Source: a virus (taxonomy: Duplodnaviria; Heunggongvirae; Uroviricota; Caudoviricetes). Taken from it: a stretch of DNA of 64,000 nucleotides. Each line of letters opens with the position of its first letter. Within the stretch, counting starts at the first letter, position 1. Shown here piece by piece: positions 2,658 through 59,295 of the stretch. The stretch lies in IMG/VR virus record IMGVR_UViG_3300025133_000019; one strand, given 5' to 3'. A program made the translations under genes and the position numbers. The notes under the pieces were generated by a model, which did not search any database, was not told the origin of the DNA, and was given only the letters and a program-made list of their open reading frames with translations.

Positions 2658-2686
2658 TTGACATTGATACTAAATTAGTGTAGTAT
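2658..2686 (+). promoter_or_regulatory. sigma70-type promoter of the tRNA-Asn unit
   Basis: TTGACA-17 nt-TAGTAT; same GTGTAGTATTAGTA context recurs at 48335-48368. Confidence 0.7.
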
Positions 2687-2764
2687 TAGTATGTCGAACA
2701 AAGAAAAATACTGCAAAAGTATTAACTTTACCGAGGGGAATGTATGCGAGACATCCTATAAATC

Positions 2765-2818
2765 ATGAAAAGACTGGGCAACCTAAATAATAACAATTTT
2801 GAGGCCGGGGTCTTTTGA
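2765..2818 (+). CDS. Asn-rich leader peptide MKRLGNLNNNNFEAGVF
   Basis: Codons AAC CTA AAT AAT AAC AAT; ORF runs through antiterminator segment 2803-2811; start coupled to upstream mini-ORF 2744-2761 (SD GAGGGG). Confidence 0.7.
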   Translation: MKRLGNLNNNNFEAGVF

Positions 2819-2832
2819 CGCAAAAAATACTT

Positions 2833-2862
2833 GCCCCGGTCTTTTTGACCGGGGCTTTTTTT
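2833..2862 (+). terminator. attenuator terminator before tRNA-Asn
   Basis: GCCCCGGTC-TTTTT-GACCGGGGC followed by T7, ending 2 nt before the tRNA. Confidence 0.9.
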
Positions 2863-2864
2863 AT

Positions 2865-2936
2865 TCACCCGTAGCTGAGAGGTTATAGCGCTTGGCGGTT
2901 AACCAAGATACGTGGGTTCGATTCCTACCGGGTGAT
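2865..2936 (+). tRNA. tRNA-Asn(GTT)
   Basis: TCACCCG/CGGGTGA acceptor (U1:A72), CTTGG-CGGTTAA-CCAAG arm, TTCGATT T loop; atypical G33 and U73. Confidence 0.85.
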
Positions 2937-2941
2937 CTTTT

Positions 2942-2970
2942 AACCTCTGTTCCCAGGAGCAGAGGTTTTT
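2942..2970 (+). terminator. intrinsic terminator after tRNA-Asn
   Basis: AACCTCTG...CAGAGGTT plus T run. Confidence 0.7.
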
Positions 2971-2997
2971 ATTTTTCTCTTTATTTCCTGTTTATAT

Positions 2998-3621
2998 ATG
3001 ACAACAAAAAAAGAGAAAATATATAAATTAAAGTATGATTATAGCAAAATACAAGAGGATATAAACGCAGGGCTGGGTTACGCACAGGTTAGAGCTAAGT
3101 ACGGAATAAGTTTTGCAGCGTTGCACAAATCGGCAAAGAAGGGAAGAATACGATTTATGACCCACTCCGAGAAAGCTAGATGGAAAACAGCTAGGGGCCT
3201 CAATCACTCTCCTAAAATGACTCCTGAATACAAAAAGAAAATCTCGGATTCAATGAAAAAGGGCCACGCCGAAGGCAGAGCCCATAACATAGGTTCGTCC
3301 AGGTGGAACAATGAGGAAAGCTACCCCGAAAAATTCTTCAAGAAAGTAATAAGTAATCATTTTGAAGACCAAGATTACCGTTATGAGCTGCCCTGTGGCA
3401 TATACTCTCTGGATTTCGCTTGGGAACATAAGAAAAAGGTTATAGAGATAGATGGTGACCAGCACCAAAGATTCGAGGAATACATAGCTAGGGATAAAAG
3501 AAAAGATGCTTACTTGAAATCTACTGGGTGGGATCTACTTAGAATTCCGTGGAAAGAGTTTTACCACAACACAAAAGAATACATCCAAATAGCTAAAGAT
3601 TTCATAGACGGGTCTATCTAA
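2998..3621 (+). CDS. DUF559/Vsr-like PD-(D/E)XK endonuclease with NUMOD3-like motif (homing-endonuclease-like)
   Basis: KKKISDSMKKGH motif; YSLDFAWEHKKKVIEIDGDQH; DKRKDAYLKSTGWDLLRI. Confidence 0.75.
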   Translation: MTTKKEKIYKLKYDYSKIQEDINAGLGYAQVRAKYGISFAALHKSAKKGRIRFMTHSEKARWKTARGLNHSPKMTPEYKKKISDSMKKGHAEGRAHNIGSSRWNNEESYPEKFFKKVISNHFEDQDYRYELPCGIYSLDFAWEHKKKVIEIDGDQHQRFEEYIARDKRKDAYLKSTGWDLLRIPWKEFYHNTKEYIQIAKDFIDGSI

Positions 3622-4211: not shown

Positions 4212-4553
4212 ATGAAGGAAGTTATTTCCCTTAATGGTACTCGAAGAGAAATTCTGCTTGACCCAGAACGAACCAACTTGAGTTTGGTTCTCAGTATTAG
4301 TGGATCTAAATTGACCAGATTCCATATCTACCTAGACGGGTCAGTAGTATTTCGCAGTTTTATTCAAGGAAAAGATAAATCTGGAGCGGATACATATGGA
4401 GACTCCTTTGTCACATTCTTTGAGCAGTATAGATGTAATCAAGGATTTCCGAGGGATGGATTGGATCGTAGAAATAGGAGATGGTCAAGTATCTGGTTTA
4501 ACAGGTTGGACTATCCAAGAATTCTGGAATCACAAAGGTTGGAACACAAGTGA
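4212..4553 (+). CDS. hypothetical protein (C-terminal frame uncertain)
   Basis: ORF with AAAGGA SD and TTGACT-17-TAGAAT promoter upstream. Confidence 0.45.
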   Translation: MKEVISLNGTRREILLDPERTNLSLVLSISGSKLTRFHIYLDGSVVFRSFIQGKDKSGADTYGDSFVTFFEQYRCNQGFPRDGLDRRNRRWSSIWFNRLDYPRILESQRLEHK

Positions 4554-4650
4554 GTAGTTCCCAAGCTATCAAAATTTCTTATCCTGGAGGAGAAAATCTT
4601 CAGTTTCCGAATGGATGTATTAAAATTAGGATTACCAATAAGGATCAGTT

Positions 4651-26192: not shown

Positions 26193-26221
26193 TTGACACT
26201 GATACACAATATGAGTATGAA
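26193..26221 (+). promoter_or_regulatory. sigma70-type promoter of the Ile/Met tRNA unit
   Basis: TTGACA-17 nt-TATGAA. Confidence 0.6.
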
Positions 26222-26240
26222 ACTCAAAGGAACCTCTTAC

Positions 26241-26267
26241 ATAGCTATGATTATTATGCGGTTGTAG
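26241..26267 (+). CDS. Ile/Met-rich leader peptide (I A) M I I M R L; start uncertain (26211, 26241 or 26247)
   Basis: ATA GCT ATG ATT ATT ATG CGG TTG TAG; AAAGGA at 26226-26231; stop lies in antiterminator segment. Confidence 0.65.
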   Translation: MAMIIMRL

Positions 26268-26296
26268 GGGTTTTTGTTTCTCCTTTGGTTAAAGCT

Positions 26297-26327
26297 AAAG
26301 ACCCCTCATCTCCGAGGGGTCTTTTTT
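26297..26327 (+). terminator. attenuator terminator before tRNA-Ile
   Basis: AAAGACCCCTC-ATCTCC-GAGGGGTCTTT plus T run. Confidence 0.9.
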
Positions 26328-26333
26328 ATATTC

Positions 26334-26405
26334 TGGCGTATAGTCTAACGGTTAGGTCGCTACTCTGATAAAGTAGAAGTCTAGGTTCAATTCCTGGTAC
26401 GCCGA
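26334..26405 (+). tRNA. tRNA-Ile(GAT)
   Basis: CTACT-CTGATAA-AGTAG anticodon arm, TTCAATT T loop, A73. Confidence 0.9.
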
Positions 26406-26412
26406 TATACTA

Positions 26413-26485
26413 GGCAAGGTAGTTCAGTTGGTAGAACGCATAGCTCATATCTATGAAGTCGGGAGTTCGATCCTCTCTCTTGCTA
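26413..26485 (+). tRNA. tRNA-Met(CAT) elongator (or lysidine-type Ile2)
   Basis: CATAG-CTCATAT-CTATG; lacks initiator GGG/CCC pairs. Confidence 0.85.
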
Positions 26486-26490
26486 TTTAT

Positions 26491-26564
26491 CGTGGCGTAG
26501 CTCAGTTGGTTAGAGCATCATCCTTATAAGGTGAGAGTCGTGAGTTCAAGCCTCACCGCCACGA
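26491..26564 (+). tRNA. tRNA-Ile(TAT)
   Basis: CGTGGCG/CGCCACG acceptor, TCATC-CTTATAA-GGTGA arm. Confidence 0.88.
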
Positions 26565-26569
26565 CTAAA

Positions 26570-44814: not shown

Positions 44815-47385
44815 ATGGAAAATACAATTACAGTTGAACCAAATACTATTTTTTTATGTATTGGACCCACTAATTCTGGTAAAACTACTTTTATCAAGAA
44901 TTTGATTGCTAATAATAAAAAGAAGCTGGAGGGACTAAATGTTCAAATACTGGGGTCTGACCAAATAAGAAAAGAGCTTCTTGGGGAGGATTTGTTTAGA
45001 TATGATCCTAGAATGCTTGAAGCTAGCGATGCTACGTTCAGAGTATTTGAAGCTAAGTTAAAAGCGTTAACACAATACCCTATTAACGCAGACATTATTT
45101 TTCTTGATTGTACTTCTTTGCATCCTGACTTCAGGAAATTCGTAAGTAACACTGCAAAGGAAAGTTGCTACAATCTACAAGCCCTAGTTTTCAACTACAA
45201 AGACACCGAAGACCACATGAGGTATGCTCACGAAGGCTATGAACATCTAGTATACAGGAATCTCAAGAAGTTTAGAACAACAGTACTTCCCACTATTAAA
45301 GCCAAAGATTTTGATGGTCTAACTAAAATAAGGTCTAAAGACTTTGGTGACTGGGAACTCGGTCTAAAGAACTTTGATTTAGCTGAGAGTTACAAATTAG
45401 ATCCTGAGGTACATTATAGTATTATCGGAGATATCCATGGGTGCTTCGATGAATTTCAAGAACTGCTTTTAAAGCTCGGAAGTAAAATTGAGAATGGTAT
45501 TCTCATTCCTCCTGAAAACAGAAAGTTTATTAGTATAGGTGACCTGATTGATAAAGGCCCGGAAACTAAAAAAGTAGTAGACTTTGTTCTCAGAAATATC
45601 CAGCATTTCATTATTATCAGAGGAAATCACGAATACGGTAATTACCAGTATTTGACTGGTCAAATGAAGAAAGGGACCTGGACCCCTAAGTTTATTAATG
45701 AGTGGTTCGATACAATTAGGCTAGCCGAGCAAGATCCGGATTTAAAACAGAAACTACTTGAGCTAGTCGAATACTCTGCTCCTTTTGCGAGTCACCCGAA
45801 TTTTATCTGTACTCATGTTCCGTGTAAATCTAAATTTTTAGGTAGAGTCTCTAAAAAAGGGGTTAACGGTCAGGTAAGATGGAGCTATCCACATAGAGAA
45901 GATAGAACACTCGAAGAATACGCAGAACACCTTAAAGAGACCTTAAGCTACTTGAAAGAAGAGTCAGATTTTAATCTGCCTTATCATATCTTTGGTCATA
46001 TCGCTACTGCTAATACCATAAGGTATTCCAAAAAAATTGGTATTGACTTAGGGTGTTATAAGGGAGGAAAACTCCAAGCCGTAACATTTTACTCAGGAAG
46101 TAAAAAGCCTGAATTCTGTGAAGTAGAAAGTAAGCAACCCAAAGACCTTGAGGGATTACCAGATTTGACTCCTGCGCCTGTTCCGGTGGAACTAAATTTA
46201 GAAGATCTAGATCCTAAGGACATGGTTAAGATGAGGAAAATTTGCGCTAATAAAATAAATTTTCTTAGCGGTACGGTATGCCCAGCAGACAAAGATACTG
46301 AAACTAACGAACTAGAATCTCTAGAAAAAGGTTTGAACTACTTTAAAGACAACGGAGTAAACAAGGTTCACCTGCAAACCAAGTATATGGGAAGTAGAGG
46401 TACTGTGTACTTAACTCCAGATAATGAAACAAGTTTCGTTATTAGCAGAAACGGGTTCAAAATAGGATACCTAGATTTCAGCGATCAGTTCTCGATTCTT
46501 AGGGACAGGGTTAAAGAGTATTTCGACTGCGGTGCAGAAATAGTTATTATAGATGCCGAAATCATGCCTTGGGCTGCTATGGGTAAAGGGTTAATAGAAA
46601 AAGAGTTCGGGATAGTAGGAACAGGGTTAGCTTCAGAGCAAGACATATTAAAAAATTCCGGGTTTTACGAACAATTAGATTCTATGTCTTGCTCAACAGA
46701 ATTTATTGGCTACCTAGAAGACAAGAAAACTACTAGTAAAAAGGATCTTGTTGAGAAGTACGGACACTCTAAATTTTCGACTTACCGTGCTCTAGACGAA
46801 TCAGAGATTATAGAATCTTATACCGAGGACTTTTTGATTCAGCAGTATTTTGATCAACTAAAACTTTATGGAGAAGAAGGCGATTTGCATATAGAACCCT
46901 TCTGTCTGTTAAAAGTAGTTTATCCTGATAGTGAAACCACATTTTTTACAGAAACCAGTAAATCTATGTTTCAAAAAGTAAACCCCGAAGGTCGTAACTT
47001 AGAGGTTGACTTTAGCGATCCAGATTACCTGGAGAAAGCCCAAGCATTTTATGACGAACTTACTTTAAATATGGAAGGTATAGTGATTAAGCCAGAGATC
47101 ATGTGGACCCCTGGAATTGCTCCTTATATGAAAGTCAGAAATCCTCGATACCTCTCCATTATCTATGGGTATGACTATCAGAAAGACACTAAATTCCAAA
47201 GACTCATCAGGCAAAAGAATATCGCCAGAAAACTGAGGGCAAGTATCCAGGAGTACGAAACTGGAAAAAGTCTGTTAGAAGTCCCTTGGAAAGAAATAAA
47301 CAGTGAAAACACTAGGTATATTGGTTTGGTCTCTAAATTCATGAGGCTTGAGAAAAAAGCTGAATCCTTAGATCCTAGATTATGA
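44815..47385 (+). CDS. pnkp: polynucleotide kinase-phosphatase-ligase (bacterial Pnkp)
   Basis: GPTNSGKTT kinase; IIGDIHGC/IGDLIDKG/RGNHE phosphoesterase; TKYMGSR, EGIVIKP, KVRNPRYLSIIYG ligase. Confidence 0.93.
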   Translation: MENTITVEPNTIFLCIGPTNSGKTTFIKNLIANNKKKLEGLNVQILGSDQIRKELLGEDLFRYDPRMLEASDATFRVFEAKLKALTQYPINADIIFLDCTSLHPDFRKFVSNTAKESCYNLQALVFNYKDTEDHMRYAHEGYEHLVYRNLKKFRTTVLPTIKAKDFDGLTKIRSKDFGDWELGLKNFDLAESYKLDPEVHYSIIGDIHGCFDEFQELLLKLGSKIENGILIPPENRKFISIGDLIDKGPETKKVVDFVLRNIQHFIIIRGNHEYGNYQYLTGQMKKGTWTPKFINEWFDTIRLAEQDPDLKQKLLELVEYSAPFASHPNFICTHVPCKSKFLGRVSKKGVNGQVRWSYPHREDRTLEEYAEHLKETLSYLKEESDFNLPYHIFGHIATANTIRYSKKIGIDLGCYKGGKLQAVTFYSGSKKPEFCEVESKQPKDLEGLPDLTPAPVPVELNLEDLDPKDMVKMRKICANKINFLSGTVCPADKDTETNELESLEKGLNYFKDNGVNKVHLQTKYMGSRGTVYLTPDNETSFVISRNGFKIGYLDFSDQFSILRDRVKEYFDCGAEIVIIDAEIMPWAAMGKGLIEKEFGIVGTGLASEQDILKNSGFYEQLDSMSCSTEFIGYLEDKKTTSKKDLVEKYGHSKFSTYRALDESEIIESYTEDFLIQQYFDQLKLYGEEGDLHIEPFCLLKVVYPDSETTFFTETSKSMFQKVNPEGRNLEVDFSDPDYLEKAQAFYDELTLNMEGIVIKPEIMWTPGIAPYMKVRNPRYLSIIYGYDYQKDTKFQRLIRQKNIARKLRASIQEYETGKSLLEVPWKEINSENTRYIGLVSKFMRLEKKAESLDPRL

Positions 47386-47567
47386 GTTATAAAACCTGTA
47401 GTTGCGGGGAAGATTTTTTATGTCATGAAGATTATTTGGCTAAAACTACTGACTGTGGTACAATGGAATTTGAAGATGAAGTGTTTGTACTAAGAAATTG
47501 TAAAAAATGTTTGTCAACACTAACAACTGAAGATACCAAGGATTCAATATGCATAGAGAACCCCTAG
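47382..47567 (+). CDS. small Cys-rich protein
   Basis: CSCG...NCKKCLSTLT. Confidence 0.5.
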   Translation: MSYKTCSCGEDFLCHEDYLAKTTDCGTMEFEDEVFVLRNCKKCLSTLTTEDTKDSICIENP

Positions 47568-47809
47568 AAGAAATTATAAAAGCTCAAAGGATGGGGATAA
47601 TAGTCTTGTTTTTAGTGGCTTTAAGCTTTGGTATATTCGCAATGTGTCTGGAAAATAAAATGCATGATTTGGAAAATAAATTTATAGATACAAAATTAGA
47701 AAATTCTTTGCTGAAAAGCAGGCCCGGACTAGTTGTAAATAAGGCACACCTGGATCTAGTCTCCCTTTTCGCTAAAGATCTAAAAAAGTGTAACGATTCA
47801 AAAAGGTAG
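47549..47809 (+). CDS. membrane-anchored hypothetical protein
   Basis: Hydrophobic segment followed by coiled coil. Confidence 0.5.
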   Translation: MHREPLEEIIKAQRMGIIVLFLVALSFGIFAMCLENKMHDLENKFIDTKLENSLLKSRPGLVVNKAHLDLVSLFAKDLKKCNDSKR

Positions 47810-47816
47810 GACTAAC

Positions 47817-48197
47817 ATGAAAGAGAATTTCCATTTAAAAGTTGTAATAGCAGTTCTTATAGTATCTAACTGTTTGACAGCTTACAACATGATTGGCAGC
47901 AGATGGTGTGACCACTCTAACGATAAAACCGAGAGGTACGAAGAATTATTTAGTAGATTTAAACAAGTCAGAAAAAACTCCTATGATTTTGCAGAAAGAG
48001 TTAGGATTATAAGAGGGCAGTTTGAGACTGTTAATAGTAAACTCATAAACTCTAGAAATACGGTAAAATCTTTAGAGGAAAAAGCGGAATCTCTCCGAGA
48101 GGTTTGGAAGTCAGCTCAGAAACTGGTAATAGTTCAAAGAAAGAAGTTGGAATTACTAGCCGAGCCAGACCAAGAGATATCTTATTTTACGACGTAA
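47817..48197 (+). CDS. membrane-anchored coiled-coil protein
   Basis: VVIAVLIV segment then coiled coil; AGGA SD. Confidence 0.55.
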   Translation: MKENFHLKVVIAVLIVSNCLTAYNMIGSRWCDHSNDKTERYEELFSRFKQVRKNSYDFAERVRIIRGQFETVNSKLINSRNTVKSLEEKAESLREVWKSAQKLVIVQRKKLELLAEPDQEISYFTT

Positions 48198-48334
48198 AAT
48201 AAGAGAGTTCGAGGCTTATATGGACAAACAGGAGCTTAAAAAGATTGAAATAGAGAAGGGGACAGAAAAGCTTGTTAAATCAAATCAAATTTTAACAGAA
48301 ACTTGTGGAAAGAGCATAAAAATCGAGAAATAGG

Positions 48335-48363
48335 TTGACACTAATAGTTATTTGGTGTAGTAT
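48335..48363 (+). promoter_or_regulatory. sigma70-type promoter of the Gln/Cys/Leu tRNA operon
   Basis: TTGACA-17 nt-TAGTAT, same context as 2658. Confidence 0.75.
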
Positions 48364-48459
48364 TAGTACATAAGACTGAAGATTACAGGGTTACCGTTAT
48401 TTTGAGACACACCCCCTGCTATCACTCACTGGGTCTTATATTTTTTAAAGGATATAGAA

Positions 48460-48534
48460 ATGATTACAAGAAACGTTTTACAACAGTTATGTTTGCTCCA
48501 GCTAAGTATGCTGGGAGGTAAGGGCGTTTCGTAA
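48460..48534 (+). CDS. Leu/Gln/Cys-rich leader peptide MITRNVLQQLCLLQLSMLGGKGVS
   Basis: AAAGGA SD at 48447-48452; TTA CAA CAG TTA TGT TTG CTC CAG CTA; 3' half covers antiterminator segment. Confidence 0.8.
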   Translation: MITRNVLQQLCLLQLSMLGGKGVS

Positions 48535-48553
48535 AAACATTGCTATAACTACA

Positions 48554-48598
48554 AAAAAAGCCCCTTGTTTTCCAGATAGGAAGCAAGGGGCTTTTTTT
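48554..48598 (+). terminator. attenuator terminator before tRNA-Gln
   Basis: AAGCCCCTTGTTTTCC-AGATA-GGAAGCAAGGGGCTT plus T run. Confidence 0.9.
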
Positions 48599-48605
48599 GT
48601 GCCCT

Positions 48606-48677
48606 AGAGCCTTGGTGTAATTGGTAACACAGCAGACTTTGACTCTGCTATTCTGAGTTCGAATCTCAGGGGCTCTG
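48606..48677 (+). tRNA. tRNA-Gln(TTG)
   Basis: GCAGA-CTTTGAC-TCTGC; G73. Confidence 0.92.
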
Positions 48678-48684
48678 TATTGTT

Positions 48685-48756
48685 GACACGGTGTCCGAGT
48701 GGTTAGGGAGATGCCTGCAAAGCATCTTTACGTGAGTTCGAATCTCACCCGTGTCT
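48685..48756 (+). tRNA. tRNA-Cys(GCA)
   Basis: GATGC-CTGCAAA-GCATC; U73. Confidence 0.92.
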
Positions 48757-48759
48757 TAT

Positions 48760-48830
48760 AGAGGTATAGTGTAATGGTAACACGACAGACTCTGAATCTG
48801 TGGCTTCTGGTTCGACTCCAGATACCTCTG
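48760..48830 (+). tRNA. tRNA-Gln(CTG)
   Basis: ACAGA-CTCTGAA-TCTGT; G73. Confidence 0.92.
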
Positions 48831-48833
48831 CAT

Positions 48834-48917
48834 GGCGGTGTGTTGGAATTGGTATACATCTGAGTTTTAGAAACTCAGGCCCTTAAGGGATTGAGAGTTC
48901 GAATCTCTCCACCGTCA
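48834..48917 (+). tRNA. tRNA-Leu(TAG)
   Basis: TGAGT-TTTAGAA-ACTCA, long variable arm, A73. Confidence 0.9.
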
Positions 48918-48923
48918 TTACAT

Positions 48924-49008
48924 GGCTCCGTAGCCGAATTGGAATAGGCACTAGAGTTAAAATCTAGCGGACATCGTCCATTTGTGGGTTCAATCCCCAC
49001 CGGAGCTA
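48924..49008 (+). tRNA. tRNA-Leu(TAA)
   Basis: CTAGA-GTTAAAA-TCTAG, long variable arm, A73. Confidence 0.88.
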
Positions 49009-49023
49009 TTTTATAGTATATAA

Positions 49024-49112
49024 GCTGATGTGGCGGAATTGGTATACGGTACTTCCTTTCGGGAAGGAGACCTATTAATACGGTCACGAAGGTTCGAACC
49101 CTTCCATCAGCT
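49024..49112 (+). tRNA. atypical class II tRNA-like RNA: Leu-type body, TTC at anticodon position
   Basis: GCTGATG/CATCAGC acceptor, GGAATTGGTATAC D loop, ACTTC-CTTTCGG-GAAGG arm, 20-nt variable region, U73. Confidence 0.7.
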
Positions 49113-49118
49113 CTTTAT

Positions 49119-49200
49119 GCCAACGTGGTGAAACTAGAAGACACGCTAGACCTAGAATCTAGCGCCTTCGGGCATGCGAGTTCGACCCTCGCCGTTGGTA
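49119..49200 (+). tRNA. tRNA-Leu(TAG), second copy
   Basis: CTAGA-CCTAGAA-TCTAG (C33), variable arm, A73; D loop lacks GG. Confidence 0.8.
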
Positions 49201-49206
49201 CTACAT

Positions 49207-49288
49207 AGCAGTACGTTGGAATTGGAAGACATGCAAGACTAAGAATTTTGTGCCTTTTGGCGTGAGGGTTCGAATCCCGCCGTCGCTA
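49207..49288 (+). tRNA. tRNA-Leu(AAG), imperfect acceptor stem
   Basis: CAAGA-CTAAGAA-TTTTG, variable arm, TTCGAAT T loop; mismatches in acceptor and T stems. Confidence 0.65.
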
Positions 49289-49357
49289 TATAATTTCTAT
49301 ACAAAGAGCTATTTCTTTGTTATAATTAGTAAAATAACTATTTATACAAGGAACATA

Positions 49358-49975
49358 ATGACAACACGTCTTGATTACACTTCTAATAACTCAGTAACAT
49401 TCTCCAGCCTGTCTCAAGTGACACCTTCTAATTTATCTCAGATATACGATTCTTCAGAACCGGGAGTACTGAGTATGGAAGTAAAAGGTTCTATTTCCAC
49501 AGATGGGTATTACACAATAACTAATTTAGAGGAACATCACAGGCATAACGGAATTCCTGACATCTTTTCACACTCAGATTTAAAAATGTCCACAGTATCC
49601 GAATTAACTATGCTTACGCAAGTAAAACAAGGCCACTCAGTTCATGTGGAGGAGACTGATATGACCTATGTTTTCACAGGAGAAAGCTGGGAAGAAAAAT
49701 GTAAAAGCTCCGAATTCACTGTTGACACGGGTTCTCACTCTTTCGTAGTTTTGGAAAAGCCCGAGGAAAATATAAAAGACTTTAATACTGTTGACGATGC
49801 TGCGAGAGGCATTAGTTTTTTAGAGCCTTTAAAAACTGTGCATGAATTACTTATGTTAGAAAACGTAGAAGCAGGGGATGCCAGATTTATCGAAGAATTT
49901 GATGTGTTAGTAGTTTTTTGTGGAGAGAGCTGGCTTCCTCTGATAAGTGCTAATAAAACATATCAATACTTATAG
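49358..49975 (+). CDS. hypothetical protein
   Basis: Start moved to ATG 49358 (AAGGA SD) to avoid the tRNA. Confidence 0.6.
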   Translation: MTTRLDYTSNNSVTFSSLSQVTPSNLSQIYDSSEPGVLSMEVKGSISTDGYYTITNLEEHHRHNGIPDIFSHSDLKMSTVSELTMLTQVKQGHSVHVEETDMTYVFTGESWEEKCKSSEFTVDTGSHSFVVLEKPEENIKDFNTVDDAARGISFLEPLKTVHELLMLENVEAGDARFIEEFDVLVVFCGESWLPLISANKTYQYL

Positions 49976-50019
49976 ACAATAGAACTATAATGAGTTACAA
50001 TAGATAAGAGGAGTTAAAA

Positions 50020-50256
50020 ATGGAACTCTCGGGACTGATATACTTAGGAGTAGGGATGGAATTAGCAGTACTGACATATCTAGTGCTAGGGATGATTACT
50101 GGTGGAGCTGTTTTGTATAAACTAATCACAGCTAAGCCCAAGGAAGATCACAACAAAGCTTTAATTTTTACGGTTAATTCTGTAATGGTTACGGTCTCTG
50201 TGGTACTCTGGATTTTGGTTGTTCCTGTTTTGATGTACTTGAAATCTAGGAAATAA
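50020..50256 (+). CDS. small membrane protein
   Basis: Two hydrophobic helices; GAGGAG SD. Confidence 0.6.
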   Translation: MELSGLIYLGVGMELAVLTYLVLGMITGGAVLYKLITAKPKEDHNKALIFTVNSVMVTVSVVLWILVVPVLMYLKSRK

Positions 50257-50495
50257 TGTGGGAAACGATAGCTAAATATCTATCTCTCCTATACTACACA
50301 GGATTTTTTATATCCTTTGCTTATCTTTTTGGTGTCAAACTCGGAGATAACTTCGGAATTCTTAGACAAAAAAACTGGATTACAGGAAGAGCTAGACCGC
50401 TAGGAGTACTGGTATTCTTCAGTTTTTTAGCTTCAGTATTATGGTTTATAACAGGACCTTGTTATCTATTGGTCCGATACAAACGGAGAATTTAA
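50256..50495 (+). CDS. small membrane protein
   Basis: Two hydrophobic helices; TAATG coupling. Confidence 0.6.
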   Translation: MWETIAKYLSLLYYTGFFISFAYLFGVKLGDNFGILRQKNWITGRARPLGVLVFFSFLASVLWFITGPCYLLVRYKRRI

Positions 50496-50729
50496 ATGGA
50501 ACCGAATTTTAAATCCCTTTTTTTAACAGTAACTTTAGGCGTGGGCATTATCTTTTCAGGGTTTTATGCTTTTTTTACTAGTCAACCCGTTGTTTCTTCT
50601 GATACTACTATCCATTGGTCTGAGCACACAAAAAAATTCAGTATTCAAGTAATTAATTCCGAAAAATCCTGTCAAAAGGTTTTGAGGATTGCTGAGACCG
50701 GGGAAGAGTTTACTTCATCTTGTGACTGA
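50496..50729 (+). CDS. small membrane-anchored protein
   Basis: One hydrophobic helix. Confidence 0.55.
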   Translation: MEPNFKSLFLTVTLGVGIIFSGFYAFFTSQPVVSSDTTIHWSEHTKKFSIQVINSEKSCQKVLRIAETGEEFTSSCD

Positions 50730-50730
50730 C

Positions 50731-51660
50731 ATGAATGAAATTAAAGATCTAAAAACTCTAGAAAAATCTTTACACGAATTCAATTGGGAACAAGAGCTAG
50801 AAAAATTCCGGCACAACCTAGCTTACGACAATTATCAAACTGATTTCGAAAAAGCTTATCAAAAACCTGTTTTTACCGAAGAGGATATGCCTATAGTACT
50901 AGCTATCCTGGGAGTATCAATTGTAGGAGGCTTTTGTCTGGTAGGAGCTTTTTTTGTGGGCATGGCTTTACAAATCTCTAGCTTAATGGCTTTTGTAGGA
51001 ATAGTGTTTGCTATTTCTTTTAAAGACGAACTCCTCAGTTTAATTCAGAGATCTATCTTAGATCCCAAGATAGACTGGGAAGAATATGATAAATACGAAC
51101 TAACTCCAAGAGATGTTCTCCAATTCCTAAGGACTAAGGTTGACGTAATTCTTAGCTCTTATGAATCCAGGGCAGATAATATTAACTCCTATTTTGCTTC
51201 TAAACAAGCTAGGTATGATGAATTAGTAGAAAACGCTGAGGAATACAAAATGTTAGGTGTAAATGGCTGCTTAGACGGCATTTACGGGCTAGACGAGATA
51301 ATATCTGAACGAAAACAGCAAGTAGGGTTAGTAAAAAGAGAGCTGTGCTCTCTTAGATCTAGATTCCAAGAGAAAACTCAAGAGCTAGAAGAAATTTTAG
51401 AAGTTCAAGAGAATATGGAAAATAGAGACCGTATTTTTAAGGAAACCCAGGAAGCAGGGGAAGAGTTGTCCAAAGAAATTGGGGAAGCCGAGAGTGTCTG
51501 GATAAACTTCATAAGCACTCTGAATTCTGATTTATCTTGTCTGGAAAGGTTTTCAACAGAGAAATTGGAGTATTGCAAGGATTCAGTAGAAGCAGAATTA
51601 CGACTTTCGTACTCAAATGTTGAGAAAGAGCTTGAGGCTCCTGCTGAATCTCTAGTCTGA
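50731..51660 (+). CDS. membrane hairpin plus long coiled-coil protein
   Basis: Two adjacent TM segments then E/K/L-rich coil. Confidence 0.65.
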   Translation: MNEIKDLKTLEKSLHEFNWEQELEKFRHNLAYDNYQTDFEKAYQKPVFTEEDMPIVLAILGVSIVGGFCLVGAFFVGMALQISSLMAFVGIVFAISFKDELLSLIQRSILDPKIDWEEYDKYELTPRDVLQFLRTKVDVILSSYESRADNINSYFASKQARYDELVENAEEYKMLGVNGCLDGIYGLDEIISERKQQVGLVKRELCSLRSRFQEKTQELEEILEVQENMENRDRIFKETQEAGEELSKEIGEAESVWINFISTLNSDLSCLERFSTEKLEYCKDSVEAELRLSYSNVEKELEAPAESLV

Positions 51661-52134
51661 CTTCATGTCAAAAAAGTCTTTAGGGGAAAAGTGAGAGTTA
51701 TCATAAATGATCTCTCTTATAGAATCCCTTTTCAGTCTTCCAGTGTAAATAGCTTCCCGGAATCTGTCTAAAGAGTGGCTTAAATCTGGATTAAAGGAAT
51801 TGTCGAAATTCTCTGTTTCGCCAGTTTTAATAGGATTTAGATCAGATGCTTTAGCTCGGAATACTATAATACACGAGTCCCCGTATTTTCTGTGCCTCTC
51901 AAGAAATGACCGGGCTTGTTCTAGATGTAATGTGGAATAAACTCCCAGTTTTTCTCTTCCAGCTTTCCAATATACCTTAGATTGATAATGAGAGGCATTA
52001 ACACCATTTCCTAGCCAATCCATAGCAGTAGTCACAAAGTTTGCGTGATAAACTTCTAATATCTGGTCAGACTGTAGATATTCCAATAAGTTACGTTGAA
52101 AATTATTGGCTATTATTTGGAATTTCTGAAGCAT
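51652..52134 (-). CDS. hypothetical protein, possible ADP-ribosyltransferase fold
   Basis: EVYHA, YSTLHLEQARSF, CIIVFR spacing reminiscent of ART strands. Confidence 0.4.
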   Translation of the reverse strand: MLQKFQIIANNFQRNLLEYLQSDQILEVYHANFVTTAMDWLGNGVNASHYQSKVYWKAGREKLGVYSTLHLEQARSFLERHRKYGDSCIIVFRAKASDLNPIKTGETENFDNSFNPDLSHSLDRFREAIYTGRLKRDSIREIIYDNSHFSPKDFFDMKSD

Positions 52135-52193
52135 GTTTAAACAAAATATTAACAGATAATCAATTAATTTAATTACTTATTTAGGAGGCTGCG

Positions 52194-52466
52194 ATGGAAA
52201 TTAAACCCTATAGTCAAATAGTAGAAGAACTTGAGGATTTACATAAAGAGATATTTGAAAAACTTCCGGGCCTTGTAGAAAGCTCTGTTAAAGAGAACAT
52301 ATACAAAGGATCACAAAAGTTTTCAATCACTCTAGAATACACCAAACTTCCTTCTTCGATAGAAAAAAAGATAGTAAACGCTATAACTAAAGCTGGATAC
52401 AAGAACATAACTCTTAATCCGCATGATAACAAGATTACTATTAGCTTTCATCCAGAATTGTTTTGA
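52194..52466 (+). CDS. hypothetical protein
   Basis: 90-aa ORF with AGGAGG SD. Confidence 0.6.
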   Translation: MEIKPYSQIVEELEDLHKEIFEKLPGLVESSVKENIYKGSQKFSITLEYTKLPSSIEKKIVNAITKAGYKNITLNPHDNKITISFHPELF

Positions 52467-52798
52467 AGAAAAACATAAAGCCCTCGTATCTCGATAGCAA
52501 GAATCAGATACAAAAGGTGGATACTTATAGGCTAACCAGCGTACCTTACAAAACCTACGTTCCCAAGCCACAACCTCCAAGAGAACCCGTTGCCAGCGGT
52601 TCTTCTGAACTAGAAGCGTTAAAAAAGAGAGTAGCTGAATTAGAAGCTTTGCTTGCTAAGGGATCAGGGTCCTTCAAAGAGATTACTTTAGAAGAGATAC
52701 TTGCTCTACAAAAGATAGAAGGCAAAGATACCGAGGATAAACGAGAACTGTTCAAATCTATATTGTCAGACAACCTAGATTTACAGGATAAACAGTGA
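52463..52798 (+). CDS. hypothetical protein with short coiled coil
   Basis: ELEALKKRVAELEALL. Confidence 0.5.
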   Translation: MKKNIKPSYLDSKNQIQKVDTYRLTSVPYKTYVPKPQPPREPVASGSSELEALKKRVAELEALLAKGSGSFKEITLEEILALQKIEGKDTEDKRELFKSILSDNLDLQDKQ

Positions 52799-54780
52799 GC
52801 ACGATAGAACAAGAAATATCTAGACTAATTCAAAAAGAATCAAAAATATTGGCTAGTTCTAAAAGAGAGATCGAGAGAGCTAGACTTAAAATTAAAAATG
52901 ATCCTTATAGTTTTAGGTATCTTTCCGACGCATTAAAAAATAATTTAGAGCTAGCTCGGTATGCGGTTGAGGAAGACCCCACTAATTTCAAGCATGCTCC
53001 TGACGAATTAAAAAAAGATTTAAAATTATCTGAACAGGCAGTTAAAAAAGATTCTAGTAATTTTGGTCATGCTCCCTATGAATTAAGAAACAATTTAGAA
53101 CTCGCTACATGGGCAGTTAAAGACGCTCCTTATAATTTTCATTCTGCTTCTGAGGAATTGAGAGGAAATTTAGAATTTGCTACGTGGGCGGTTGAAATAT
53201 CTCCAGGTAATTTCAAGTATGTTCCTGACAAGTTAAAAAATAATCTAGAATTCTCTACGTGGGCGGTTGAGATATCTCCTAGTAATTTTGAACACGTTCC
53301 CTATGAATTAAGAAATAATTTAGAACTGGCTAAGTTTGCGGTTAGGGAGGACTCCTTTAGTTTCCAACATGCTTCTAAAGAATTAAGAGGAAATTCAGAG
53401 TTTGCTAGATATGCGGTTGAGATAAAGCCCACTGATTTCAGTTATGTCTCTGAGGAATTAAGGCATAACACAGAATTTGCTAAATGGGCGGTTGAAAAAA
53501 ATTATAGTAATTTCAAGTATGTTTCTGAGGAATTAAAAAACGATTTAGAGTTCGCTACAGATATGGTTGAAAAAAACCCTACTAATTTCCAATATGTTTC
53601 TGATGATTTAAAAAATAATTTTGACCTAGCTAAGTTTGCGGTTGGAGAAGACTCAGCGAATATCACAAATGTTTCTGACGAACTGAAGAACAAGTTGCCC
53701 GACTCCCCTTTTCATGACCCTCATAAATCTCCGGAGCAAGTAGAAATCTCTAAGAATACTCCAGCTTCCTTATATGATTTAGTAAGGTATCTAAAGAAAA
53801 ACAATCTTGAATTCACGGATTGGGTTATCCTAGAAAAACTTGATTTAACAGAAGACAAACACACAAATAATTTAATCCGGGAATATAATCAAACTCATGT
53901 ATCTCCTCTTGTTAAGAAATTTGTTCAAAACCTGGATAAAAATCTATCAAAAAAAGAACAGCAACAAAAAATTAAGGAATACCGTGGAAAATTAAATTCT
54001 GAATTCAAAATTCCTGTGGAGTTTATAGTTGAATCTCGAAGTTTTCACTCCGAGAAAATTGTACCCGAAAATTTAAAACAGCCCAAAGATGGCTTATCTG
54101 AAATAGAAAAACGGTTCAAGGATACCAAAACTCTAGACATCAGTGATCCAGAAATAAGTGAAGCTATAAAAGAATTCAGAAATATAATCCTAAACAAAGG
54201 AGTGACTAAGCATCATACTTGGTCCGGAGATCAAAAAATATTTCCTAGCACAAATCACGTTATGATGCTTGTTATCCCTAAAGATATTATTCCTCCAAGA
54301 TTATATGAACTTAATAAGATCAGGGTAGACCATGCAATTTCTAAGAGTGAGCACCCATTTATAAAAGGAAACTTGACAATTGGATGGGTAAGATATACAC
54401 TAGGAAAAGACATTACTGGCAACAAAGATAACGAAGATGTTTGGATTGATGAGATTCAAACAGATTTCTCCTCTGTATTCGGAAAAGAAAATATGAAGCA
54501 AGTTTTTCCTATTGAAAAAATCTCTTATCTTTTGGTCAAAAAGTCCATTAAATTTAGAAGAGCTAAGGGATTTGAGAAGATTTACATTCCCACTTTTGAA
54601 TTATCAAGTCATTTATATGACAGAGAGGAGTCGTATGTACCTCCTTATACATCTATTCCTCAAAAACTGAGGTTTAAAAGAACGGAATTGAATGATTTCC
54701 ACAAAAAAGTTGATGGAAACCAAGTTTGGGTTCTAGCTAAGAAAAAACTAGACTCAGGATATACTTTTGATTGGAGTTAA
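52795..54780 (+). CDS. DUF4116-like repeat protein with WIDEIQ domain (member 4)
   Basis: Ten 25-aa repeats, then NLTIGWVRYT, VWIDEIQTDF, VWVLAKKKLDSGYTFDW. Confidence 0.82.
   Translation: MSTIEQEISRLIQKESKILASSKREIERARLKIKNDPYSFRYLSDALKNNLELARYAVEEDPTNFKHAPDELKKDLKLSEQAVKKDSSNFGHAPYELRNNLELATWAVKDAPYNFHSASEELRGNLEFATWAVEISPGNFKYVPDKLKNNLEFSTWAVEISPSNFEHVPYELRNNLELAKFAVREDSFSFQHASKELRGNSEFARYAVEIKPTDFSYVSEELRHNTEFAKWAVEKNYSNFKYVSEELKNDLEFATDMVEKNPTNFQYVSDDLKNNFDLAKFAVGEDSANITNVSDELKNKLPDSPFHDPHKSPEQVEISKNTPASLYDLVRYLKKNNLEFTDWVILEKLDLTEDKHTNNLIREYNQTHVSPLVKKFVQNLDKNLSKKEQQQKIKEYRGKLNSEFKIPVEFIVESRSFHSEKIVPENLKQPKDGLSEIEKRFKDTKTLDISDPEISEAIKEFRNIILNKGVTKHHTWSGDQKIFPSTNHVMMLVIPKDIIPPRLYELNKIRVDHAISKSEHPFIKGNLTIGWVRYTLGKDITGNKDNEDVWIDEIQTDFSSVFGKENMKQVFPIEKISYLLVKKSIKFRRAKGFEKIYIPTFELSSHLYDREESYVPPYTSIPQKLRFKRTELNDFHKKVDGNQVWVLAKKKLDSGYTFDWS
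52909..53696 (+). repeat. coding tandem repeat, ~75 nt x 10
   Basis: Unit NF.(Y/H)(V/A)S.EL(K/R)NN.EFA.(W/Y)AVE..P. Confidence 0.85.
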
Positions 54781-58972: not shown

Positions 58973-59206
58973 ATGAAGCTTACAGATCATCAACTAAAAG
59001 CACTGAGAAGAATAAAAAGAGGGATAGAGAAAGCTAAAAAGCTAGATCCTGGTTATACCGGGGGACTCCCTCTAGAACATTCGGTATTTCTTAATGCGTC
59101 AACCCTTAAATCTCTGTTAAAAAGAGGATTAATACAACTGGATAGATCCAGTGTTAATCATTCTGTTTACGGGGAAGTAAAATTCTCAATCCATATGACC
59201 CCTTAG
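58973..59206 (+). CDS. small winged-helix-like protein; TAG stop lies inside the tRNA
   Basis: MKLTDHQLKAL...TLKSLLKRGLI. Confidence 0.55.
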   Translation: MKLTDHQLKALRRIKRGIEKAKKLDPGYTGGLPLEHSVFLNASTLKSLLKRGLIQLDRSSVNHSVYGEVKFSIHMTP

Positions 59207-59268
59207 CTCAATGATAGAGCGTCGGCTTCTAAACCCGAAGGTTGAGAGTTTGATTCTCTCAGGGGTCA
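59197..59268 (+). tRNA. tRNA with Arg(TCT)-like body; standard spacing gives CTA anticodon (possible amber suppressor)
   Basis: GACCCCT/AGGGGTC, GCTC/GAGC D stem, G-TCGGC-TTCTAAA-CCCGA-AGGTT, T loop TTTGATT. Confidence 0.65.
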
Positions 59269-59295
59269 TAAAAAATTTGGAAGCAAAATTAACAG

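Follow-up and report, generated by a model that had tools for sequence, protein, structure and literature searches.

A putative leader-peptide attenuator ahead of a tRNA-Asn gene in a very large marine phage-like genome

Introduction

Why would a phage place an intrinsic terminator directly in front of one of its own tRNA genes, and what would let RNA polymerase past it? The question is raised by a tRNA-Asn gene in a 64,000-nucleotide stretch of DNA, hereafter the window (IMG/VR record IMGVR_UViG_3300025133_000019; Caudoviricetes), which has a GC content of 37%, encodes 13 tRNAs, and comes from a very large uncultured marine phage-like genome. Between promoter and terminator lies a short open reading frame (ORF) rich in Asn codons, and a sequence-only reading of this DNA had proposed that the locus is an Asn-sensing attenuator. 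The analysis presented here makes it likely that the unit at 2658-2975, referred to as unit A, is a leader-peptide attenuator that senses the supply of charged tRNA-Asn and feeds back on the tRNA gene.

The role of phage tRNA genes has been debated for decades, with codon compensation on one side and replacement of tRNAs lost to host defense on the other. To our knowledge, how such genes are regulated has hardly been asked.

Results

Anatomy of the tRNA-Asn unit

All of the elements that the sequence-only reading had listed were found in the window where it had placed them: the promoter, the 17-codon ORF with five Asn codons of both kinds (AAC and AAT), the terminator, and the tRNA-Asn gene. 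The complementarity that it had proposed between GGCCGGGGT (2803-2811) and the terminator 5' arm GCCCCGGTC (2833-2841) is likewise present. The unit is composed as follows.

2658-2686, forward strand: sigma-70-type promoter, assigned by consensus, with TTGACA (2658-2663), a 17-nt spacer, and TAGTAT (2681-2686)
Near 2691-2694, forward strand: transcription start predicted from the promoter consensus
2691-2768, forward strand: candidate upstream ORF of 25 codons, MSNKEKYCKSINFTEGNVCETSYKS and stop, whose TGA shares ATGA with the leader ATG
2733-2761, forward strand: Shine-Dalgarno (SD)-like GAGGGG (2733-2738) and mini-ORF MRDIL with stop (2744-2761)
2765-2818, forward strand: leader (sensor) ORF of 17 codons, MKRLGNLNNNNFEAGVF, with stop TGA at 2816-2818
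2780-2797, forward strand: leader Asn codons AAC, AAT, AAT, AAC, AAT
2768-2779, forward strand: segment 1, AAAAGACUGGGC, partner of segment 2; anti-antiterminator and possible pause hairpin
2803-2815, forward strand: segment 2, of which 2803-2812 pair with the terminator 5' arm and 2808-2815 with segment 1
2833-2862, forward strand: intrinsic terminator with a 9-bp stem (8 G-C pairs), loop UUUUU, and U7 at 2856-2862
2833-2841 and 2847-2855, forward strand: terminator arms, segment 3 (GCCCCGGUC) and segment 4 (GACCGGGGC)
2865-2936, forward strand: tRNA-Asn(GUU), the regulated gene (ARAGORN; Rfam, 57.6 bits), with no encoded CCA
2942-2975, forward strand: second intrinsic terminator, closing the unit

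The tRNA gene begins 2 nt past the U-tract of the first terminator, with no further gene before the second terminator. A consensus scan of 2700-2865 returned no promoter-like site, and since none lies between leader and tRNA, tRNA-Asn would be made only by readthrough of the first terminator. The promoter itself belongs to a small set: TTGACA-N17-TAGTAT has three exact matches in the 64 kb, two of them ahead of gated tRNA units, and five sites match with at most one mismatch against 0.58 expected. Beyond the -35 hexamer, the promoters at 2658 and at 48335 (unit C, described below) share 22 of 28 bases.

Asn codons and the antiterminator exceed chance

The leader devotes 5 of its 17 codons to Asn, four of them consecutive, against a background of 5.1% of long-ORF codons. 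When 20,000 random segments of the same length were drawn from both strands and all frames of the window and scored by their best stop-free 10-codon stretch, five Asn codons were reached in 0.12% of them (P = 0.0012). A search within 70 nt upstream of the terminator arm gave a comparable picture for the antiterminator, as the complement between GGCCGGGGU and GCCCCGGUC, at -17.8 kcal/mol, was equaled in 0.2% of random genomic 67-mers (P = 0.002). Both the Asn density and the antiterminator complement are thus beyond chance. A strict finder called five terminators in the 64 kb, of which three lie directly ahead of tRNA blocks, and these three hold the three strongest upstream complements of the five.

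The leader is predicted to fold as a four-segment switch

Folding of the full leader, whether by minimum free energy (MFE) or by centroid, yields the terminator hairpin together with a helix between 2768-2779, which spans ORF codons 2-5, and 2803-2815; the leader is more stable than expected (z = -2.95). The sequence-only reading had recognized three of the segments, and these stand as described; it had missed the fourth, segment 1, whose pairing with segment 2 turns the layout into a four-segment design of the trp type. Because there are four segments and not three, the default in the absence of translation would be termination, as in trp. The pairings 1:2, 2:3, and 3:4, which are mutually exclusive, have energies of -14.3, -21.4, and -21.9 kcal/mol, respectively (the 2:3 value is an RNAduplex energy that includes adjoining bases; restricted to the arm, it is -17.8 kcal/mol). 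The Asn codons occupy the loop that separates segment 1 from segment 2, the UGA stop lies directly 3' of segment 2, and the leader AUG is unpaired in the MFE structure.

Ribosome positions were modeled by forcing a 28-nt footprint, of assumed size (-15/+12), to remain unpaired. For an A site placed on any of the first three Asn codons (2780, 2786, and 2789), the MFE structure of the RNA as far as segment 3 is the 2:3 antiterminator. When the ribosome is placed on the stop codon, segment 2 is hidden beneath it, and the full-length RNA folds with the terminator hairpin formed. The earlier proposal that stalling frees the antiterminator and complete translation masks it is therefore borne out in these folds for the first three Asn codons.

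Proposed mechanism

From this architecture we infer promoter use, translation of the leader ORF, stalling, the switch itself, and its biological trigger. Host RNA polymerase would start at TTGACA/TAGTAT and produce a leader of about 170 nt, on which a ribosome would translate the 17-codon ORF. When Asn-tRNA(Asn) is scarce, the ribosome would stall on the AAY codons (2780-2797) over segment 1 and leave segment 2 free; segment 2 would capture the emerging 5' arm of the terminator, no terminator hairpin would form, and polymerase would enter the tRNA-Asn gene. RNase P would then release tRNA-Asn from its long leader. When the AAY codons are read quickly, the ribosome would reach the UGA at 2816-2818 and cover segment 2, with termination at 2862; without translation, segments 1 and 2 would pair and the terminator would likewise form. 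The charged product would relieve the stall, which amounts to negative feedback on the supply of a single decoder.

The label "Asn-sensing" given in the sequence-only reading holds in the sense that the rate of AAY decoding, and with it charged tRNA-Asn, would be sensed, not Asn as such. Because more tRNA cannot cure amino acid starvation, the useful trigger would be tRNA shortage itself. Codon demand by the phage itself, or the loss of tRNAs in the course of infection, could bring about such a shortage.

Two sister units carry leaders that match their own tRNAs

The order of promoter, short ORF, antiterminator ending at the leader stop, U-tailed terminator, and tRNA within 5-9 nt is repeated twice elsewhere in the window.

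26193-26565, forward strand: unit B; promoter-to-tRNA part 26193-26333, terminator 26297-26327
Unit B leader: codons ATA GCT ATG ATT ATT ATG, with a stop (TAG) that overlaps the antiterminator
Unit B tRNAs: Ile(GAU), Met(CAU), Ile(UAU)
48335-49201, forward strand: unit C; promoter, SD, leader, and terminator (about 48553-48598), promoter-to-tRNA part 48335-48604
48460-48534, forward strand: unit C leader ORF, MITRNVLQQLCLLQLSMLGGKGVS and stop, with nine consecutive Leu, Gln, or Cys codons
Unit C tRNAs: Gln, Cys, Gln, Leu, Leu, a Glu-like tRNA (Glu anticodon), Leu

In each case the leader is enriched in codons read by the tRNAs behind it, with P values of 0.0012 for unit A, 0.0066 for unit B, and 0.0033 for unit C, or about 3e-8 jointly if the three units are counted as independent. 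The enrichment is specific in the cross-comparison, as the unit B and unit C leaders each contain a single Asn codon. Their antiterminator complements also exceed background (P = 0.007 for unit B and P = 0.04 for unit C), and in masked folds both units switch in the manner of unit A. Two sister units whose leaders match their own tRNAs strengthen the interpretation of unit A as an attenuator. As a separate observation, TAG is the stop codon of the unit B leader, and a tRNA with a CUA anticodon is encoded elsewhere in the window (59196-59269).

Copies of unit A and a related Ile/Met unit

An exact-protein look-up recovered unit A in five independent marine metagenome contigs. The copies are identical and carry no informative variation; as they come from independent contigs, unit A is not an assembly artifact. 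Among near-identical strains (contigs L020 and L021), a 134-aa gene (1066-1470) replaces the window's 144-aa gene (770-1204), and the tRNA-Asn unit downstream is base for base the same as in the window.

Informative divergence is found for unit B. In a relative, next to a helicase with 70% identity, lies a homologous unit (L065, 4690-4963; L066, 6558-6838) with a promoter of like type, an ORF encoding MKFMNINI(NI)MLC, a terminator, and genes for tRNA-Ile(GAU) and tRNA-Met(CAU). The stem sequences have changed, all three pairings (1:2, 2:3, and 3:4) are retained, and the stop codon again overlaps segment 2. Strains of the relative differ by one in-frame 6-nt AACATT repeat (NI twice or three times). 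Its tRNA-Ile(UAU) gene stands apart from the block (L065, 8750-8863), 11 nt past a plain promoter (TTGACT-N17-TATAAT) and with no leader or terminator, and ATA codons are absent from the relative's leader. The codon match is slightly imperfect, in that this leader contains two or three AAC codons and the block has no tRNA-Asn. As judged from sequence comparison, conservation of the design in this Ile/Met unit strengthens the attenuator interpretation.

An analogous unit in Caulobacter phages covaries

A comparable arrangement is present in the Caulobacter phage phiCbK (JX100813, slice 47000-53000, slice positions 4300-4631), where a promoter is followed by an ORF beginning MSKTYRQFVRQIQVVRNIRAG, a terminator, and then a block of tRNAs in the order Phe-Val-Ile-Ile-Val-Gln-Gln. 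The ORF is conserved across six Caulobacter and Brevundimonas phages, and an 11-bp antiterminator is paired in all six sequences, with compensatory changes at three pairs; none of 500 shuffles matched this covariation, and slid controls collapsed. Where the block includes tRNA-Asn (Colossus and Gurke), the leaders hold extra Asn codons, and the Gurke leader also holds extra Tyr codons beside a block that includes tRNA-Tyr. By analogy, the covarying unit strengthens the attenuator interpretation for the window. The two other annotated pre-tRNA terminators of phiCbK (Glu/Asp and Pro/Pro) were considered as further candidates and set aside, their upstream ORFs being weakly or not codon-enriched. 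Neither attenuation nor leaders are mentioned in the phiCbK genome paper (PMC3556154).

Discussion

Points that weigh against an attenuator, and alternative explanations

Several observations weigh against the interpretation of unit A as an attenuator, and the first concerns the start of the leader. As the sequence-only reading had noted, the leader ATG has no SD of its own, follows MRDIL and its stop by 3 nt, and overlaps another stop within ATGA; all of these features are present. Leader initiation would therefore depend on coupling to either upstream ORF, or on an open A/U-rich site. The 25-codon ORF, which a transcript beginning at A2691 would make leaderless, is one candidate coupling partner; MRDIL, with GAGGGG 5 nt upstream of its ATG, is a second, lying in the leader frame and separated from it by TAA and ATC. 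An analogy is provided by the relative's unit B leader, which is near-leaderless, its ATG lying 8 nt past the -10 hexamer.

The second point concerns the geometry of the switch. An alternative helix between segments 1 and 3 (-18.6 kcal/mol) makes the OFF state less clear-cut; with the ribosome at the stop codon, this 1:3 pairing is the MFE structure of the truncated RNA, and on these models it could permit readthrough without stalling. Stalls at the fourth and fifth Asn codons, moreover, begin to cover segment 2 under the assumed +12 nt footprint. The same 1:3 helix, in energy and in the truncated-RNA fold, is what would favor a translation sensor without codon specificity, in which any ribosome opens 1:2 and releases segment 1 or segment 2 to bind segment 3. 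Translation of the leader would then suffice for tRNA synthesis, with little contribution from the Asn run. Such a sensor would leave unexplained the Asn enrichment (P = 0.0012), the three matches between leaders and tRNA blocks, and the fact that the stop codon lies at the antiterminator in each of the three units and also in the relative. In addition, the terminator is the MFE structure of the full-length RNA, and we infer that the 1:3 helix would have to close around the ribosome, with about 5 nt from its leading edge to segment 3. We regard this explanation as unlikely.

A third set of points concerns how far the design extends. Within the window, tRNA-Asp (2186) and the CUA tRNA (59196) have no such unit. 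The tRNA-Asp leader was considered as a gated unit and rejected, having no Asp-rich ORF and no terminator; the region 2033-2185 does contain four strong hairpins in a row (MFE of -50.7 kcal/mol, z = -4.6), with no U-tailed terminator among them. Outside the window, searches of IMG/VR, metagenomes, GenBank phages, and proteins returned identical copies of unit A only and no diverged homolog. The exact terminator 23-mer and a degenerate tRNA-Asn pattern had no match in IMG/VR, metagenome pattern scans with the tRNA-Asn arm and the shared promoter had none, and blastn against GenBank phages gave unrelated tRNA matches only. The 68-aa and 224-aa neighbor proteins had no homolog beyond themselves among 5.8 billion proteins, nor did the 224-aa protein have one in a viral-contig scan. 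Distant IMG/VR relatives, with helicases of about 30% identity, have no tRNAs beside the helicase, and Pnkp relatives in IMG/VR were rejected as a comparison set because they are too distant. In one distant contig (G001), the tRNA blocks have Bacteroidota-type promoters and no leader/terminator units. The design is thus not universal, since distant relatives with promoters of this type do without it.

It could also be supposed that the terminator is fixed and leaky, serving to damp or insulate tRNA expression from a strong promoter, with the short ORF and its Asn run fortuitous. A-rich codons are indeed common in a genome of 37% GC, and the absence of an SD before the leader ATG would fit. However, an Asn run this dense and a GC-rich antiterminator of this strength are both rare against the genome's own background, the coincidence would be needed three times with different matching codon sets, and the homologous and analogous units retain both the ORF and the alternative pairing. 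There is, in our judgment, little chance that this explanation is correct.

Even less probable is that the transcript of about 170 nt constitutes a stand-alone gene for a small RNA or micro-protein, with the tRNA made by incidental readthrough or from an unrecognized promoter. The leader is significantly structured (z = -2.95), and its sub-threshold Rfam matches are small RNAs that bear terminators; all of these matches, however, fall far under the gathering scores and are driven by the terminator hairpin. The U-tract is followed after 2 nt by the tRNA gene, for which no promoter consensus is present, and the same arrangement recurs before two other tRNA blocks. The attenuated leader RNA could also act in trans, as is reported for rnTrpL (PMC6614838), but such a role would add to attenuation and not replace it.

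A T-box-like switch, in which the RNA senses uncharged tRNA directly and translation plays no part, would likewise tie a terminator/antiterminator choice to one tRNA species. It is nonetheless highly improbable. Searches with E relaxed to 10 gave no match to a T-box or any other riboswitch, and the leader shows neither a specifier loop nor the sequence architecture of a T-box. Several cognate codons in tandem, inside an ORF that has both a start and a stop codon, point to a ribosome as the reader, and the different codons of units B and C are more than one specifier could cover.

Relationship to known attenuators

If unit A is an attenuator of the kind proposed, its closest counterparts are the enterobacterial leaders (trpL, hisL, pheL, leuL, thrL, and ilvL). 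It shares with them a promoter, tandem regulatory codons, an intrinsic terminator formed by 3:4, four segments with exclusive 1:2, 2:3, and 3:4 pairings, and a stop codon positioned to let a terminating ribosome cover segment 2; units B and C, with their several codons, are similar to the multivalent leaders of thr and ilv. The enterobacterial attenuators control enzymes of amino acid biosynthesis, whereas unit A would control the tRNA that reads its own regulatory codons, and because the regulated gene is that tRNA, the loop would close on decoder supply. Unit A also differs from them in being phage-borne, in having a leader ORF without its own SD, and in lacking similarity in sequence or to Rfam models. 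No Rfam family reached threshold for the leader; the sub-threshold matches, listed at E up to 10, included Trp_leader (16.9 bits; cut-off, 41) and Thr_leader (13.6 bits; cut-off, 55).

Among cellular genes for the translation apparatus, the pheST operon of Escherichia coli, encoding an aminoacyl-tRNA synthetase, is attenuated by the pheM leader. In both pheM and unit A, a leader peptide rich in cognate codons precedes a translation-apparatus gene for the same amino acid and would respond to charged tRNA; the target of pheM is a cellular synthetase, and that of unit A is a viral tRNA gene. T-boxes share with unit A a choice between terminator and antiterminator that is set by the state of one tRNA, but they read the tRNA by RNA-RNA contact without a ribosome and act on synthetase, biosynthesis, and transporter genes. 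The T-box model RF00230 gave no match at its gathering threshold in the whole window, and none at E up to 10 on 2640-2870. The pheU and pheV genes of E. coli were considered as a precedent for a Phe-rich leader before a tRNA gene and rejected, their leaders being 3-4 nt long (PMC7049720).

By function and anatomy, then, the proposed element is a classical leader-peptide attenuator, and what is new is its tRNA target. A full-text literature search found no paper on leader-peptide attenuation of tRNA genes, whether phage or cellular, and the class of attenuator-gated tRNA genes appears to be undescribed. As far as the consulted parts of two papers on phage tRNAs extend, one proposing that phage tRNAs counter depletion of host tRNAs (PMC10264068) and the other describing a T5 tRNA that acts against PARIS defense (PMC11464382), they contain no description of regulated expression of phage tRNA genes, and a term search for promoters found no mention in the searched text of the former. 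The same parts of these papers offer a rationale both for tying tRNA output to shortage and for anticodon-loop variants such as the one described below.

Genomic context and the tRNA-Asn anticodon loop

The tRNA-Asn(GUU) has G33 (loop CGGTTAA) in place of the near-universal U, a substitution shared by no other tRNA among the 13 in the window; the tRNA-Asn sequence is identical in the five metagenome contigs. G33 may bear on the function of this tRNA or on escape from anticodon nucleases. Separately, one tRNA-Leu in the window has C33.

The window also carries Pnkp/Hen1 RNA-repair genes, a TnpB-like gene, and DUF4116 proteins, and in the protein collection its proteins occur on contigs of up to 374,268 bp. 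The RNA-repair genes would be compatible with a conflict over tRNAs, and so would the two papers on phage tRNAs cited above (PMC10264068 and PMC11464382). A gene of the DUF559/MTES_1575 endonuclease-like type (2998-3621) begins about 30 nt past the terminator that closes unit A, and it may encode a homing-type endonuclease lodged beside the tRNA gene.

Implications for phage biology

It is tempting to speculate, though we hold it only as a tentative extension, that unit A is one channel of a multi-channel shortage alarm, in which stalling detects lost host tRNAs and the matching tRNA is switched on. The losses in question would come from host anticodon nucleases or from phage-induced tRNA decay. 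Gated tRNAs would then be an inducible counter-defense and not a codon-usage supplement, the G33 loop may serve to escape nucleases, and the leaders would reveal which host tRNAs the phage expects to lose.

Unit A can be tested directly in a cell-free system or an E. coli reporter because it is about 320 bp long and has host-type signals, and phiCbK offers a cultured model for the design, in Caulobacter. The Asn unit is also the simplest case in this phage, with one codon family and one tRNA. If the proposed attenuation is correct, the phage would measure decoding speed codon by codon and top up whichever decoder is limiting, which would favor a supply-on-demand view of phage tRNA genes and give a textbook mechanism a new class of targets.

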